Shown here in pieces: positions 15,028-63,122 of a DNA stretch of 64,000 bases. Both the position numbers and the translations under genes were made by a program. Position 1 is the stretch's first letter, and every line of letters starts with the position of its first letter. Source of the DNA: Mustelus asterias (taxonomy: Eukaryota); the NCBI RefSeq assembly GCF_964213995.1, contig NC_135811.1, positions 77,190,001-77,254,000 of the forward strand, written 5' to 3'. The notes beneath the pieces were generated by a model. The model ran no database searches. It saw only the letters and a list, made by a program, of their open reading frames with translations, and was not told where the DNA came from.

Positions 15028-15850
15028 CCATAAGACCATGAGACCATTAGACATGGGAACAGAATAGGCCACTCGGCCCATCAAGTCTACTCTGCCATTC
15101 AAGGAGATCATGACTTATGTCATATGATACTCCTCAACTCTACTTTCCTGCCTTATCCCATCAGCCTTGATTCCCTTACCAATTAACAATCTGTCTATCT
15201 CATCCTTGAACATACTTAATGACTCAGCCTTTACGACCGTCTACGGTAAAGAATTCCACAGATTCACTATCCCCTGAGAGAAGAAATTCCTCCTCATCTC
15301 TGTCTTAAATGCGCGACCCCCTTACTCTGAGATTATGCTCTCTGGTCCTAGATTCTCCCACAAGGGGAAACAACCTCTCAGCATCTACCCTATCAAGGCC
15401 CCTGAGAATGATGACCATGAAACCATTGTCGATTGTCAGAAAAACCCATCTGGTTCACTAATATCCTTTAGGGAAGGAAATCTGCTGTCCTTACCTGGTC
15501 TGGCCTACATGTGACTCCAGAGCCACAGCAATGTGGTTGACTGTCAACTGCCCTCTGAAATGGCCTAGCCAGCCACTCAGGTCAAGGGCAATTAGGGATG
15601 GGCAACAAATGCTAGCCCAGCCAGCAACGCCCACATCCCATGAATGAAATAAGAGAAAACATCCTATATGTCTCAATAATGTCACTTCTCATTCTTCTAA
15701 ATTCCACTCAGTGCAGGCCCAATCTACTCTACCTCTCCTCATAAGAAAATCCTTCCATACCTGGGATCAACCTAGTGAACTTTCAGTGGATTGCCTCCAA
15801 TGTCAGTATATCTTTCCCTCGATATGGGGACCCAAAACTGTTCACAGTCA
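15028..15850 (-). mobile_element. CR1 LINE 3' fragment interrupted by SINE family C (15408-15650, plus)
   Basis: gagaagaaattcctcctcatctc (EMRRNFFS) and other CR1 C-terminal motifs. Confidence 0.8.
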
Positions 15851-16009
15851 CTGTGAGAATAGCTCAATCTTGTTCGACTGATACCATGGGATTTTTAACA
15901 TTCACCTGAACCATAAAACAGGTTGACAGGGACTAAAGGTGGATTATTTGGTCATTATTTCATTGCTGGTTGTGGGATCTTGCTGGACACATTTTGGCTA
16001 TTGGTGTTT

Positions 16010-16965
16010 CATACAAATATACAAGTTAGGAGCAGAATTGGGCCAATCAACCCCTTGAGCCTGCTCTACCATTCGGTAAGACCATGGCTGGCCCGATTGT
16101 AACCACATTCCTGCTTATCCCCAATAATCTTTCACGCCTAGTTAATCAAGAATCTATCTCACTCAGCCTTCAGCGACCCTGCTCGACAGACTTTTGAGGA
16201 GGAGCATTCCAGAGACTCGCCACCCTTTGTGAGAAAAAAATCCTCCTCAAACATGTCTTCAATGAGCCACCCCTTATTTTAAACTGTGATCCCGAGTTCT
16301 GGATTCTCCCACAAGAGGTAAAACATTCTCTCCACATTCACACTGTCAAGATCCCTCAGGGTCTTACATGTTTCAGTCAAGCCGCCTCTTACTCCTCTAA
16401 ACTCCAAAGGATACAAGCCTAACCTCTCCACCCTTTCCTCATAAGATAGCCCACCCATTCCTGGTATTCGTCCAGCAATCCTTCTCTGGACTGCTTCTAT
16501 CGCATTTACATCTTTCCTTAAATAAGGAGACCAATGCCGGACACAGTACTCCATTTTCCTGTAAAGCTGAAGCTCATCTTCCCTGCTGTTGTAATCGATT
16601 CCTGCAGTGATTGTCCCTTTAAGGATCAATCTGCAAAGTAAGTGTCAAATGACCAGGGAACCATTCGGGGAGCATGGTGGGGGAATCACCCTGATAAGCG
16701 CTGGCTTCTGTGCTCAGAGACATCGCAGGAGCTGATTGCAGCCACAAGGTTGTAAGCCTCTGTATGGTTTGAACCTGTGAATAAATGAGCTGCGTTTTCC
16801 TAAATTGGTGAACGAGCATTTTTTATAATTCCCCTCACAATAAACAAATAATTAATTTTCCTAATTATTTGCTGTACCTGCACATGAACCTTTTGTGATT
16901 CATGCACTCTGACGCCCAGATCCCTCTTCATTTCAGAACCCTGCCATCTCTCGCCATTTAGATAC
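16010..16965 (-). mobile_element. CR1 LINE fragment interrupted by a solo LTR
   Basis: ORFs 16279-16629 and 16800-17039 carry EYCV..WSPYLRKD and RDLGV.VHES motifs. Confidence 0.85.
16603..16827 (+). mobile_element. Solo LTR (Gypsy-type)
   Basis: 5-bp TSD attcc (16598-16602 and 16828-16832). Starts tgcagtgattgtccctttaagg, like the LTR at 43000-43238 read on the minus strand. Contains AATAAA. Confidence 0.65.
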
Positions 16966-21196: not shown

Positions 21197-22656
21197 AAGG
21201 GTTGGATGGGCAGTTGACTTAACAAGAGCACTGAAAGTTTGTGTGGAGTAAACAAGCTGTTTCAAACTATTAAAATGTTGGATATACACCAAGAAATAGT
21301 TAAAAAAAAACTTCAAGGCTAACCCTCTCTAGCTTCAGATAAAATAGCAGCTGAAGGAAACAAGAATGATTTCACTTCTTTAAAAAAAGGAAGAAATTAA
21401 GATATATTTAATCTTCTGCACATTGGGGCTGGTTCCTTTAAGGTGATGTTGTTGGTGCTGGGAATGTGAAACTTGCACTTCCTTATAATAATACCACATT
21501 ACGTTTATATAGTATCTTAAATGTAAAAAAATCACCAATGGGTAGATGAGAAGCAGCGCAAAATCAGAAGAAGGTTTCAAGGAGGTAACCAAGTGCATGG
21601 TTTTCAAATGAGACATTAAACTGGGAACTTATCTGCTCTCTGGTGGATGTGTAAAATCCCATGTTTGCTATTTGTTAGAAGAGCCAGATCCTGGACAACA
21701 TTTATCTTCAAACCTAGTCTTAAAAATGATGATCTGGCCATTAATGTCTTTGCTCTTTGCGGGATCTCGCTGTGTGCAAATGAGCTGCTATTAGCAGTGA
21801 TTAGACTTTGAAAGAAGCGCATTGGTTGCAAAGTGTCGTCCATGCAACTATTCATTCATGGAGTAAAGGTGTAGGCTTTGTGGGTTTTGAAGGTACAGGA
21901 TGACGCAGCACGCTAGAGAAATTTAGGAAGAGAATCCCAAAGCAGAGGGCCATTATAACAGAGGTGCTGGCATTGAAAGTACAGCCAGGAGATTGGGGAG
22001 TACATGACTCTGACCTAGAAGAGTTGAGTGCACCACCTGAGATATTGAGAAGACTGCAGATGTAAGATGGAAAATGCCCGCAAGCAAATCTGTAAATGGG
22101 AATGAGGGTTTTGACACAAACACATCGAGAATGGGGAGCCAGAGGAGCATTGAGGTGAGCTCAAATTTCCACACAATGCAACACAAGTGACAGAATCATT
22201 TATGGATGAGTTTGACGGCATCAATCTGAGGAGGCCAAGGGGAGGAACTTTGCAAAGACCGAACGAGGAAGTGACAAAGTGTGAAAGAGGGTATTTGAGC
22301 TTAGTTGATGCCAGGGGCAGACAACCTTTTAGTGGTGGAAATAGGCATCTTTGGACACTGAGATCCCCTCAAAGTTTATACACAATGTTAAACTTAGATG
22401 TTAGCATTTAGAATTGCTGCCTAATCTGGAAAATTCCCCAGTTTGAAAGATGCTTCCGATCAGAAGAGTACAGCTGAGAGTTCAGGCACTGTTTCCCGCT
22501 GTCAACTCTATCCTTAAAAATAAATGGTGGCATCCAAAGGGAAATAAAATGGCAACCCATGAAAAGATGAGTAAAAAAGCTGACATTGATCCAGCAAAAT
22601 AAACACAAGAAGATGGTCCAGTTGTGAGACTTGCATCAATGGCCTCTTGTGGGTAT

Positions 22657-22796
22657 CATGATGTGGAGATGCCGGCGTTGGACTGGGGTAAACACAGTAA
22701 GAAGTTTAACAACACCAGGTTAAAGTCCAACAGGTTTATTTGGTAGCAAAAGCCACACAAGCTTTCGGAGCTCCAAGCCCCTTCTTCAGGTGAGTC
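22657..22796 (-). mobile_element. Penelope-like element terminus
   Basis: Matches the 1634-1727 segment and extends into a hammerhead motif. Confidence 0.8.
22754..22793 (-). ncRNA. Minimal type I hammerhead ribozyme (Penelope-associated)
   Basis: Minus strand reads cac CTGAAGA a ggggc ttgga gctcc GAAA gctt gtg: core boxes, 5-bp stem II, palindromic loopless stem III (AAGCTT), stem I cac/gtg. Confidence 0.6.
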
Positions 22797-31366: not shown

Positions 31367-31554
31367 ATAAACAGGATAAAGACTCTGCACATTTCATACT
31401 AGACAATGCAGCTATTTGGAGAAATTCGCTTTTGAATAGAGACAAAAAGTAAATTTGATCAGACCTTGAGCAGATATCAGGTCATATTAGAATCACCGTC
31501 CTTTCAGATCTCATCACTGTTATATTTAACCTTCCCCTTTCGAGTATATTCAAA

Positions 31555-32100
31555 CTAAAGTTCATTTATTAGTGTCATGAGTAGGCTTACATTAACACTG
31601 ATTTGAATTGATTTATTGTCACATGTATTAATATACAGTGAAAAGTATTGTTTCTTGCATGCTATACAGACAAAGCATACCATTCATAGAGAAGGAATGT
31701 AGTGTTACAGTCACTGTAACTGCAATGAAGTTACTGTGAAAATCCCCTAGTCCCCACATTCTGGTGGGATCAGGCGGGTAAGTGGAACTGATCCACTTCA
31801 GATCAGCCATGATCTTATTGAATGGCGGGGCAGGCTCGAGGGGCTAGATGGCCTACTCCTGCTCCTATTTCTTATGTTCTTATGTTCTTATGGTGCCTGT
31901 TCGGGGACACTGAGGGACAATTTAGCACGGCCAATGCACCTAACCAGCACGTCTTTCAAACTGTGGAAGGAAACCTGAGCACCCAGAGGAAACCCATGCA
32001 GACACGGGGAGAACATGCAGACTTTGCACAGACAGTGACCCAAGCCGGGAATCAAACCCGGTCCCTGGAGCTGTGAGGCAGCAGTGCTAACCACTGTGCC
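31555..32100 (-). mobile_element. Type B SINE carrying two nested insertions
   Basis: Interrupted by a Rex1-type 3' end (31601-31716, minus) and a CR1 3' end (31767-31890, plus). Confidence 0.85.
31767..31890 (+). mobile_element. Young CR1 LINE extreme 3' end and tail
   Basis: Two mismatches versus 62206-62329; TSD tggtg at 31762-31766 and 31891-31895. Confidence 0.92.
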
Positions 32101-32117
32101 AAATTAGCAACTAAACT

Positions 32118-32765
32118 ATAACCCCTAATTCCCTTACCGATCAGGAATCCATCTATCCGTGATTTAAACATATTCAACGAGGTAGCCTCCACCACTTCAG
32201 TGGGCAGAGAATTCCAGAGATTCACCACCCTCTGAGAGAAGAAGTTCCTCCTCAACTCTGTCCTAAACCGACCCCCCTTTATTTTGAGGCTGTGCCCTCT
32301 AGTTCTAGTTTCCTTTCTAAGTGGAAAGAATCTCTCCACCTCTACCCTATCCAGCCCCTTCATTATCTTATAGGTCTCTATAAGATCCCCCCTCAGCCTT
32401 CTAAATTCCAACGAATACAAACCCAATCTGCTCAGTCTCTCCTCATAATCAACACCCCTCATCTCTGGTATCAACCTGGTGAACCTTCTCTGCACTCCCT
32501 CCAAGGCCAATATATCCTTCCGCAAATAAGGGGACCAATACTGCGCACAGTATTCCAGCTGCGGCCTCACCAATGCCCTGTACAGATGCAGCAAGACATC
32601 TCTGCTTTTATATTCTGTCCCCCTTGCGATATAGGCCAACATCCCATTTGCCTTCTTGATCACCTGTTGCACCTGCAGACTGGGTTTTGCGTCTCATGCA
32701 CAACGACCCCCAGGTCCCTCTGCACAGCAGCATGTTGTAATTTATTTCCATTTAGATAATAATCC
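32118..32765 (-). mobile_element. Young CR1 LINE ORF2 C-terminal body lacking its 3' end
   Basis: ORF 32052-32672 is nearly identical to ORF 61658-62230 but stops at GKGIRGY. Confidence 0.95.
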
Positions 32766-33189
32766 ACGATCGTTTTTTTTTAACGCGTGTTGCCTGTATT
32801 TTTACACTTTATGCGAACATGAACTATTCTGCCTATGCAGGATACATCATTCGGTTGAAATACCGTTAAAAAAATGATACCTGGATCAGATGGCACTTCT
32901 GAGTGACACCAAACCGACTGAAGGAATATCATGGGGGTGGAGTGACAATCTCTCAGGCCGGTAGGAAAATGTGTCTACTTGGATGGATGGCGTTCTTAAC
33001 TGCTCCAAAACTCTGAATGGGCTTGCAACCTGTGTGGCTTGCTCTGAGGATAGATGTCACGCCTAACATGATGTTGGTTCTTTAGTCAGCACTTGAACCT
33101 TTAAATTAGATCATGTTGGAAGCGCTTCCACGATCGTTTTTTTTTAACGCGCATTGCCTGTATTTTTACACTTTATGCGAACATGAACT
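32763..33189. repeat. 63-bp direct repeat pair (32763-32825 and 33127-33189)
   Basis: tccacgatcg(t)9aacgcg[tg/ca]ttgcctgtatttttacactttatgcgaacatgaact; the copies differ at 2 nt. Confidence 0.95.
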
Positions 33190-33828
33190 GTCAGTGTGGA
33201 GACGGCAACCTTCAGTACAATCCATGTTCATGACGTGTTAAGGCGTTCACACTGAAGATTTAATTATTGTCGATGCTATTACCGTGAATTGGCAACAAGA
33301 TATTGCAGAGCAATTCATGTATGGATTGGAAACTGAAAATGCACAAAATCGTTGTATTTCTTTTGTTTTAAAAATGCTAAATTGTTTTTTTTGCAATATA
33401 TAAATTATGCAGTAAGCTAAAGTATGGAAATATAATGCTCATTTGTAACCATCTTTAACCTACACTAGCCATTTCTGGGTGACCTGATTAAGCAGCGCTA
33501 TCGGCTTGTTTTGAATTCAACTGGGCTCCTGGAACCTAACTTCCAGCACTGCCCTATTTACTGTAAATTTATATACCAACCCATCACAGGGCAGTGCGGA
33601 AACACTTCCTCAAGCACTTTCAAACCTCTTATATTTGAATCCGCGGTCTAAACAATGAACGTCACCCCGAGATTACAAAAATAATGCATGTATTATTTTC
33701 AAACTTTAAAAAAAATAAGAGAGATTGCTTCTCCAGTAAGTCTTGAATACAAAACAACCTTGGGTAAAAAGGGCTGGCGAATTGTAAATAATTAACCTTC
33801 GATCCAAAGAAATCAAACGTGTTTTTAC

Positions 33829-34250
33829 CTGAAGCTGCTGCTTGGACATGAATCTTCACCTTTCAGAGAGGGCTGCGCTCAAACGCTTCAGTCCACCAAA
33901 CAGGTTCATCTGAACGTGGCTGGAATTCCTGCATATTCTCCTCCCTGGGGAATGTTTCTGGTCGGAGTGCCCTTGAATGTTGATGTAACCTCCCAGCGGG
34001 GTGGGGTGTCCCCTGGCAGGTCTGTGTGGTGTCTTGACTGGGCGATGGTCTTTAATGGCATGCCCCAGCCGACCCACGTATCTGCCTCTCTCTGCCTCTC
34101 CCTCTGTCTCTCGCTTCGCTTTCTCTCTGCGGGTCAGAACTTGTTCTCAGCCGCTCTCTCTCTCTCTCTCTCCCCTTTGCTGTTCGCCTCTGGCTTCCTG
34201 TTGAAATTGAATCTCTCAAACTTCCTCAGTCGCCGAGTTTCAGTCTCATT
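33829..34250 (-). other. Candidate first or 5' UTR exon with promoter-like context
   Basis: Unique, relatively GC/CpG-rich segment with a GA-rich tract, ending at CAG|gtaaaa; possible short start MSKQQLQ. Confidence 0.3.
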
Positions 34251-34414
34251 CTGACAAGGGGGGACTCTATCTGCAATTCTGCAAACTGGAAAATTAATTT
34301 TAAGATTAACAATGAAAAAAAAATCAGTTTCGTTTTTATTGTAAAAGTGTTTCAATAATATAAAACAGTCATGTTTACAATAAGCATAATTAACTGTAAT
34401 TAATTATATGTTTG

Positions 34415-35228
34415 CTGTAGGAAGGATGTTTTTAAACTGGAAAGGGTGCAGAAAAGATTTACAAGGATGTTACCGGGACGGGAAGGTTTGAATTATGAGA
34501 GGCTGGGACATTTTTCTCTGGAACATAGGAGGATGAGAGGTGACCTTATTTAAATTGTATTTATTAGTGTCACAAGTAGGCTTACATTAACTTAGCAATG
34601 AAGTTACTGTGAAAATCCCCTAGTCGCCACACTCCAGCGCCTGTTCAGGTACACTGAGGGAGAATTTAGCATGGCCAATGCACCTGCCCAGCATGCCTTT
34701 CGGAGGAAACCAGAGCACCTAGAGGAAACCCACATAGACACGGGGAGAACGTGCTGACTCCTCACAACAGTACCCTGGGCCAGGAATCGAACCCGGGTCC
34801 CAGGGGCTGTGAGGCAGCAGTGCTAACCACTGTGCCACCGCGTCAACCTCATGGATGTTTGTAAAATCATGATGGGTATAGATAAGGTGAATAGCCAGAG
34901 TCATTTTCCCAGGTATGGGGTGTCCAAAACTAGAGGGCATAGGTTTAAGGTGAGAGGTGAAAAATGTTAAAGGGACCTGAGGGGTAACTTTTTCACACAG
35001 AGGGTGGTGCGTATATGGAATGAACTGCCAGAGGAGTTGGTAGAGGTGGGTATAATGACAACATTTAAAAGACATTTGGACAGGTACATGGATAGGGAAA
35101 GGTTTAGAGGGATATGGGCCAAGCGCAGGCAAATGGGACTAGTTCAGTTTAGGAAACCTGGTCGGCATGGACAAGTTGGGCCGAAGGGCCTGTTTCTGTG
35201 CTGTATATCTCTATCACTATGACTCTAC
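34415..35228 (+). mobile_element. CR1 (HER1-like) 3' fragment with a type B SINE inserted (about 34550-34842, minus)
   Basis: RKDVFKLERVQKRFTRML...RGDL, then SINE, then FFTQRVVRIWNELPEE. Confidence 0.88.
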
Positions 35229-61636: not shown

Positions 61637-62331
61637 GCCAGTCTGCAGGTACAACAGGTGATCAAGAAGGCAAATGGGATGTTGGCCTATATTGCGAAGG
61701 GGATAGAATATAAAAGCAGGGATGTCTTGATGCTCCTGTACAGGGCATTGGTGAGGCCGCAGCTGGAATACTGTGTGCAGTATTGGTCCCCTTATATGAG
61801 GAAGGATATATTGGCATTGGAGGGAGTGCAGAGAAGGTTCACCAGGTTGATACCGGAGATGAGGGGTTTGGATTATGAGGAGAGGCTGAGGAGATTGGGT
61901 TTGTACTCGTTGGAGTTTAGAAGGATGAGGGGGGATCTTATGGAGACTTATAAGATCATGCGGGGGCTGGATAGGGTGGAGGCGGAGAGATTCTTTCCAC
62001 TTAGAAAGGAAGATAAAACTAGAGGACACAGCCTCAAAATAAAGGGGGGTCGGTTTAAGACAGAGTTGAGGAGGAACTTCTTCTCCCAGAGGGTGGTGAA
62101 TCTCTGGAATTCTCTGCCCACTGAGGTGGTGGAGGCTACCTCGCTGAATATGTTTAAAGCGCGGATGGATGGATTCCTGATCGGTAAGGGAATTAAGGGT
62201 TATGGGGATCAGGCGGGTAAGTGGTACTGATCCACGTCAGATCAGCCATGATCTTATTGAATGGCGGGGCAGGCTCGAGGGGCTAGATGGCCTACTCCTG
62301 CTCCTATTTCTTATGTTCTTATGTTCTTATG
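61637..62331 (+). mobile_element. Young CR1 LINE 3' fragment with intact ORF2 end and tail
   Basis: ORF 61658-62230 is uninterrupted; tail (ttcttatg)n. Confidence 0.95.
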
Positions 62332-62770
62332 AAACAGACAGTAAAGGTGATGGATTGGTTGCAGAGTTTGTGCAACTGTAGTTTGAGTCGAACAATATGG
62401 TTGATGAAACAACTCCTCCGAGGCCAGTGTCCCTTTACCAAATTTAGATTGATTTACAGAGTAAGTAACACACCGACAAGTACTTCTTACAGAGTATAAA
62501 CCCAAAGTGCCAGTAAGCCTGACACTCCACATTATATACACATGCAGGGCTCCCTGATTTGACAAGCCATTACTGCCTTAATCAACAAGCTCATATTCTA
62601 AGAGGTCCAGATCGGGGGCCTCGGTAAAGTTATTACAGTTGAATTGGGCTTAAGCAGACAAGGGATGAGCTGAGGAGCTAGGGTGCAGGGTGTCGAGCAG
62701 AGAGCGAACAGGATGACCTCTGTATCAAGGATTAAAAAACAGAAAATTCTGGATAAGCAGAATCTGGGGT

Positions 62771-63122
62771 TTGATTTGATTTATTATTGTCACATGTATT
62801 GGGATACAATGAAAAGTATTGTTTCTTGCACCCTATACAGACAAAACATACCATTCATAGAGTGCACAGGGAGAAGGAAAAGAGAGGGTGCAGAATGTAA
62901 CGTTACAGTTAAAGCTAGGGTGTAGAGAAAGTTCAGCTTAATATAAGGTTCAAAAGTCTGATGGCAGCAGGGAAGAAGCTGTTCTTGAATCGGTTGGTAC
63001 ATGTTCTCAGACATTTTCTTGATGGAAGAAAGTGGAAGCGAGCATGTCCGGGGTGCGTGAGGTCCTTGATTATGCTGGCTACTTTTCCGAGGCAGTGGAA
63101 AGTGTAGATTGCGGCAGCCATG
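62771..63122 (-). mobile_element. Rex1/Babar-type LINE 3' end
   Basis: IIKDLTHPGHARF..LPS...TNRFKNSFFPAAIRLLN; tail tacatgtgacaataataaatcaaatcaaa. Confidence 0.8.

Follow-up and report, generated by a model that had tools for sequence, protein, structure and literature searches.

Twin priming of L1, or 5' inversion, was reportedly described by Ostertag and Kazazian in 2001. In canonical cases, both pieces are joined inside one TSD (excerpts of PMC2912911 and PMC2837659). According to an excerpt of PMC4245944, 5' inversions occur almost only with L1 in human cells, none being given there for a LINE with 5-bp TSDs, and TSD length peaks at 3-5 bp for L2/CR1. A single L1 RNA can also be split over two junctions, as was the case for 3 of 13 reciprocal translocations (10.1101/2024.08.27.596794, in excerpt) and for one retrocopy (10.1101/2024.12.14.628481, in excerpt); the former text also counts 22 templated insertions at L1 5' junctions. 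Across the literature searched, in which subscription papers were thinly covered and preprint supplements lay outside, we found neither a rearrangement-free split of one RNA with two TSDs nor a report of twin priming in shark CR1.

The locus considered here lies in a 64-kb window (the whole stretch of shark DNA analysed). An earlier note had interpreted it as one CR1 RNA integrated as two separate pieces by a split form of twin priming, and this interpretation is partly supported. The pieces and their strands, their abutment, both TSDs, a patch at one junction and the sub-lineage linkage are shown by the sequence comparisons. As judged from this sequence, the split arrangement is real, and it is better supported than first described: the body's own TSD (AACTAT), the 63-nt patch and the protein sub-lineage linkage are new. 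We conclude that the locus is not a canonical twin priming product and that, most likely, one CR1 RNA inserted at two neighbouring sites. The features involved are the following.

31552..32103, minus strand: host tRNA-type SINE with two inserts, the CR1 tail piece and a fragment of another repeat (about 31601-31710)
31762..31766, plus strand: left copy of TSD1, TGGTG, its final G common to the target and the CR1 RNA (62205)
31767..31890, plus strand: CR1 3' piece (tail piece), with the last ORF2 codons (DQAGKWN and stop), the 3' UTR and a TTCTTATG-type tail
31767..31794, plus strand: 7-bp stem with a 14-nt loop, its 5' foot being exactly the first base of the tail piece
31891..31895, plus strand: right copy of TSD1, TGGTG, with TG common to the TSD and the tail repeat
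31896..32113, no strand assigned: intervening 218 bp, made of the 5' SINE part and a few flank bases, oriented as the SINE left of the tail piece
32114..32119, plus strand: left copy of TSD2, AACTAT, with AT common to the TSD and the body 3' end
32118..32764, minus strand: tailless CR1 body, from the ORF2 C-terminal region, open bar one frameshift near its 5' end and ending at GGTTAT
32763..32825, plus strand: templated patch of 63 nt at the 5' junction of the body, a direct copy of 33127-33189 and not CR1
32822..32827, plus strand: right copy of TSD2, AACTAT, the longest in-register match at the junctions of body plus patch
33127..33189, plus strand: patch donor, differing from the patch at one dinucleotide only (CA in the donor, TG in the patch)
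61638..62331, plus strand: reference CR1 copy, 5'-truncated, of the sister sub-lineage KARMD/IKGY/KWY and continuous across the break point

The reference copy at 61638-62331 served as a ruler for the RNA coordinates of both pieces. Its ORF2 fragment is open over 196 codons, and no obvious TSD was seen at either of its junctions. On this ruler, the plus-strand tail piece, taken from 31766, aligned to 62205-62331 (98.4% over 127 nt), and the minus-strand body to 61638-62203 (92.9% over 566 nt), its 3' end GGTTAT falling at window position 32118. Both this end and the presence of the missing remainder on the plus strand at 31766-31890, with TSD TGGTG, had been claimed in the earlier note and are confirmed; the TSD copies lie at 31762-66 and 31891-95. 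The same holds for the abutment, put at about 1 nt on the RNA: the only RNA base absent from both pieces is 62204, the gap rising to 4 nt at most if the target-shared bases (G of TSD1, AT of TSD2) are counted as genomic. The pieces lie in opposite orientation; in RNA coordinates, the body 3' end and the tail piece 5' end are adjacent. They are not joined within one TSD, as 218 bp of genomic DNA lie between them and the TSDs differ; the undisturbed interval, previously given as about 230 bp, measures 218 bp between the two TSDs and 229 bp nick to nick. The body 3' end adjoins AACTAT and the tail 3' end adjoins TGGTG, 229 bp apart, which do not make one target site. Since the two short TSDs are different, two target sites appear to have been cut separately.

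The host SINE, which we take to be HE1-like, continues on both sides of the first site. When both flanks of the tail piece were joined into one query, it aligned across the site to 6 other SINEs of the window, at 82-92%, with a 1-nt gap due to one base missing from the query. Each TSD pair stands in cis around its own piece, the SINE is colinear, and no exchange of flanks is seen in the window sequence. A simple inversion, which the earlier note had judged insufficient, was indeed rejected, as the SINE runs in one direction on both sides of the tail piece and the two pieces have separate TSDs. Single-site twin priming followed by a second break was also rejected; it would give pieces of the same orientation, or a middle deleted or circularised, with one TSD split. 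As to the SINE itself, about 11 nt of its usual 5' end are missing, and about 12 nt (32102-32113) stand between it and TSD2. A 6-7 nt match between the 32109-32118 region and the 3' flank near 31552-31559 may be its own TSD. The second insert nested in it (31601-31710) is the end of another repeat, also found near 62770-62900.

At the second site, TSD2 lies directly against the truncated 3' end of the body, and for this reason we consider that the body was inserted tailless rather than trimmed afterwards; a later deletion of its tail was rejected on the same ground. An in-register match of at least 6 nt was obtained at 278 of 62,001 control positions over the whole window (0.45%); counting both candidate right junctions raises this chance rate to about 1%. 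The last 4 bases of the left TSD2 copy can pair with RNA 62202-62205, by three Watson-Crick pairs and one G-T. The body alone therefore has what characterises a tailless internally primed insertion, a TSD against a 3'-truncated end together with target complementarity, and on this sequence evidence it was tailless from the start and has a TSD of its own. At its other end, the CR1 sequence can be followed to about 32764, with DYYLNG as its in-frame reading there. The last part of the span 31762..32825 given earlier, 32763-32825, is a copy of 33127-33189. The patch shares at least 2 nt with CR1 on entry and 4 nt (AACT) with the TSD on exit. The CA/TG difference between donor and patch can be read as two independent decays of one CpG, and because of this the 63-nt duplication is probably old and biological, not an assembly copy.

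Do both pieces come from the same kind of element? The body carries the diagnostic codons KSRID/IRGY where the 62-kb copy has KARMD/IKGY, and ORF2 ends in KWN in the tail piece, compared to KWY in the 62-kb copy. Among 203 fetched proteins, 41 were found by pattern to have this C-terminus, 7 of them belonging to one of the two types. All three database proteins of the body type (KSRID/IRGY) end in KWN, like the tail piece, while for the KARMD/IKGY type this ending was found in none of four database proteins (C, S, W or an early stop instead) nor in the single window copy (Y). The linkage, 3/3 against 0/5, is significant in a sample that is small (8 sequences; Fisher P = 0.018). Outside both sub-lineages, 5 of 34 related proteins likewise have N as their last residue, so that this residue may be ancestral. 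Read off-frame, P0195 has the body-type base before the break and the second variant of the tail piece after it; this JGI/IMG entry is a CR1 copy of the body type that has lost an internal stretch just upstream of the same region and runs off-frame into the 3' UTR. Because database proteins tie the residues of the body to the final residue of the tail piece, both pieces would derive from one sub-lineage, and they are the only two of that sub-lineage in the 64 kb. Assignment to different subfamilies, named earlier as the observation that would count against a common origin, could have come out of this protein comparison by setting the tail piece apart from the body; it did not. The earlier statement that the two parts belong to the same young subfamily is supported; the 'intact relative' at 62190-62220 is of a sister sub-lineage.

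As for the family, the label CR1 for both pieces is our assumption. No protein match of the ORF2 fragment carries that name; the best named matches were cartilaginous-fish proteins (65-74%), followed by RT-like proteins of birds and turtles. An RVT_1 domain is present in longer homologs, one of which (P0125) has an endonuclease domain as well. The body had no Pfam match, both pieces lying downstream of the RT domain. At the protein level, the ORF2 C-terminus of the pieces is related to CR1-type reverse transcriptases. A 3' microsatellite tail (TTCTTATG repeats) and short TSDs (5 and 6 bp) are both present, as in a CR1-clade LINE, for which an octamer tail is a trait; in length, the TSDs come near the 3-5 bp peak of L2/CR1. 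Searches beyond the window returned words of 31373-34418 in 19 of the 22 sequencing runs listed. At least half of these words were contained in three runs from one organism and one study (0.81, 0.79 and 0.50), and a run from a second organism contained 0.42 of them; one matching run was labelled 'shark metagenome', which agrees with the cartilaginous-fish matches in pointing to a shark. The word shares themselves are left out of the evidence. A pattern scan for DNA copies of the family gave none in metagenome contigs and none in viral contigs, and in prokaryote genomes a single hit, 21 nt long and in a bacterial MAG, which we attribute to chance. A protein-based scan gave two distant loci (47-48%).

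We mapped fifteen CR1 elements in the window; only in the split pair do two of them lie on opposite strands within 1 kb of each other. At 15029-16964, an older CR1 region on the minus strand, counted here as one merged element, contains at least two overlapping 3' parts, nested or in tandem. A young repeat end at 1632-1727, presumably Penelope-like, is 100% identical to 22656-22751. Right after it comes the same end again, inverted over 72 nt (97%), and a 10-bp direct repeat, TAGTTACAGG, flanks the entire structure (1632-1799; compare 22656-22759). Also, a 130-nt piece of the element at 22.8-22.9 kb is inverted at 2454-2583.

From this single locus we infer the mechanism of the split insertion, that is, the use of a single RNA, the order and timing of the nicks, and the priming itself. 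We estimate at about 0.75 the probability that one RNA was used twice, all variants (concurrent, serial or through a cut cDNA) taken together. Concurrent internal priming on one CR1 RNA from two neighbouring target sites would, by itself, fall slightly short of even odds. Under concurrent priming, a bottom-strand nick at 31761/62 would prime on the microsatellite tail, with which it shares TG. A top-strand nick 229 bp to the right would expose a 3' end (...CTAT) able to pair with RNA 62202-62205 in a hairpin loop, and to prime a second cDNA of about 645 nt. The first cDNA would stop after about 125 nt, at the footprint of the second primer and at the foot of the 7-bp stem. The 218 bp between the sites would stay paired, and the two cDNAs would not be joined as they are in L1 twin priming; being held apart by this paired middle, they would have been unable to meet. 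Each site would then receive its own second-strand cut, giving TSDs of 5 and 6 bp, and the free end of the body would copy 63 nt of DNA about 300 bp further right before re-annealing via AACT.

Concurrent priming would account for the 1-nt abutment on opposite strands, for TSD2 at the truncated end, for the sub-lineage linkage and for the flush footprint, the primer site at 62202-05 meeting the end of the first cDNA (62205/06) without a gap. Against it, the primer match is just 4 nt long, with one wobble, and the twin-priming model does not predict two TSDs, which mean four strand cuts. Because of these four cuts, two TPRT reactions on one RNA would describe the locus better than strict twin priming. 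Of the geometry proposed earlier, the polarity of the nicks and the rejoining of each cDNA to its own flank fit the locus, and both the second TSD and the sub-lineage linkage strengthen that proposal; the name overreaches, as two TSDs imply two target sites.

The same locus might be reached by serial use of one RNA, a possibility to which we give appreciable but minor weight: the first TPRT would be short, ending at the stem foot after about 125 nt; once the RNA already copied had been degraded or cut, the same RNP would nick a second site 229 bp away and re-prime on the new 3' end of the leftover RNA. The two complete CR1-sized TSDs and the near-zero gap then follow without extra assumptions. 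Serial use does require priming on an RNA stripped of its 3' tail, and stringent LINEs are thought to recognise the RNA 3' tail. It does not predict the opposite orientation and the order of the nicks, which become a coincidence of one in two to one in four. Several insertions from one L1 transcript at different sites have been suggested (PMC10191854, in excerpt), but in the case of human tailless retrocopies the preferred explanation was internal priming, not broken RNA (PMC5322556, in excerpt). Serial second priming yields the same locus as concurrent priming; the predictions of the two differ over many sites, concurrent priming giving opposite-strand pairs only, and serial priming both orientations. 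Much less probable is that one long cDNA, begun at the first site, was cut at the hairpin foot by a flap nuclease, its 645-nt piece being captured at a staggered break 229 bp away. The tail piece does end exactly at the stem foot, and ERCC1-XPF is reported to cleave 3' flaps and to limit L1 (PMC5223499), but for such a capture the free 5' end of the cDNA would have to be ligated to a genomic 3' end, and the 4-nt pairing between genomic end and RNA, with a CR1-sized TSD, fits priming better.

Two readings do without a repeated use of one RNA. The more serious is that of two independent insertions from the same active sub-lineage, one a short 5'-truncated copy and the other an internally primed tailless copy, which we consider unlikely on the sequence data. 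Both pieces are self-contained insertions flanked by TSDs of their own, the host SINE already has another nested insert, CR1-group elements make up 22-34% of elasmobranch genomes (PMC13343379, in excerpt), and TSD-flanked LINE copies without a tail are no rarity in humans, where 5,593 3'- and 5'-truncated L1 were counted under relaxed screening (PMC5322556, in excerpt). A rough chance model, with assumed inputs of 2 sub-lineage copies per 64 kb, 5% of copies tailless with a TSD, 5 of 700 positions and one orientation, gave about 5e-6 pairs per 64 kb, or 0.4 per 5 Gb, at the observed tolerances, and 5e-4 per 64 kb, or about 36 per 5 Gb, with loose ones; 0.4 to 36 such pairs would then arise by chance per 5 Gb, and very many windows were surveyed. 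The break also coincides with the loop of a 7-bp stem and with the foot of a second one; this may be a shared hot spot and, if so, could raise the chance that independent copies end there. Such stem feet number 4 in the 694 nt of the 62-kb copy, and their match with the start of the tail piece was noticed post hoc; the 3' 182 nt of that copy folded no better than shuffled sequences (z = -0.46). None of the 13 other CR1 elements had an alignment end at the break, a count in which old copies give blurred ends. It speaks against independence that the only two pieces of the sub-lineage in 64 kb are separated by 229 bp, adjoin to within 1 nt on the RNA and show the polarity of twin priming. Finally, we give very little credence to a rearrangement of one ordinary CR1 after insertion, or to a misassembly. 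The region is repeat-rich, but the SINE is colinear across the tail piece. The TSDs are different words and not reverse complements of each other, which excludes one target site split by inversion, and the TG versus CA difference between patch and donor fits two old CpG copies, not an assembly duplicate.

If one RNA was indeed used twice, more than one round of cutting and priming per RNA is required of the LINE integration complex, which bears on how second-strand nicking and 5' truncation happen. Internal priming would then take place in a short-TSD clade where 5' inversions are reported to be nearly absent, and some neighbouring fragments now annotated as independent repeats would be single events. 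As a tentative and rather doubtful generalisation, a LINE RNP might use one RNA for two separate target-primed insertions, both completed, at neighbouring sites and without rearrangement; in short-TSD LINEs such as CR1, which would be unable to twin-prime from a 5-nt overhang, this would be a recurrent route and would contribute a real share of the tailless and very short shark copies. The signature (abutting coordinates, two TSDs, orientation) is countable in any shark assembly, and would separate concurrent from serial priming.

Compared to known systems, the body resembles the tailless retrocopies of PMC5322556, being 3'-truncated and TSD-flanked, with 2-4 nt of target complementarity in those cases and an end in a predicted loop. 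They are products of therian L1 with A-rich priming, and the excerpt describes no neighbouring insert of the missing 3' part. The patch is comparable to the templated insertions at L1 5' junctions, which are short local copies (<250 bp) with microhomologies, as far as the excerpted account goes; its template lies about 300 bp from the site, compared to typically within 15 bp in L1. The arrangement of the two pieces recalls the L1 copies 'sawed in half' in tumours and cell models, where the halves of one RNA share a break point and only one has the tail. In the excerpts at hand, these cases accompany translocations, inversions or deletions, with flanks exchanged (10.1101/2024.08.27.596794, 10.1101/2024.12.14.628481). 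The present case is a CR1 from a shark assembly, with sites separated by 229 bp, ordinary TSDs in cis and no visible rearrangement. With L1 twin priming, the locus would share two opposite-strand cDNAs of one RNA, one tail-primed and one internally primed, with abutting RNA coordinates, and perhaps a short primer-RNA complementarity, here of 4 nt including one G-T; in L1 the cDNAs are joined at one site within one TSD, whereas here they would never have been joined, and there are two sites and two TSDs.
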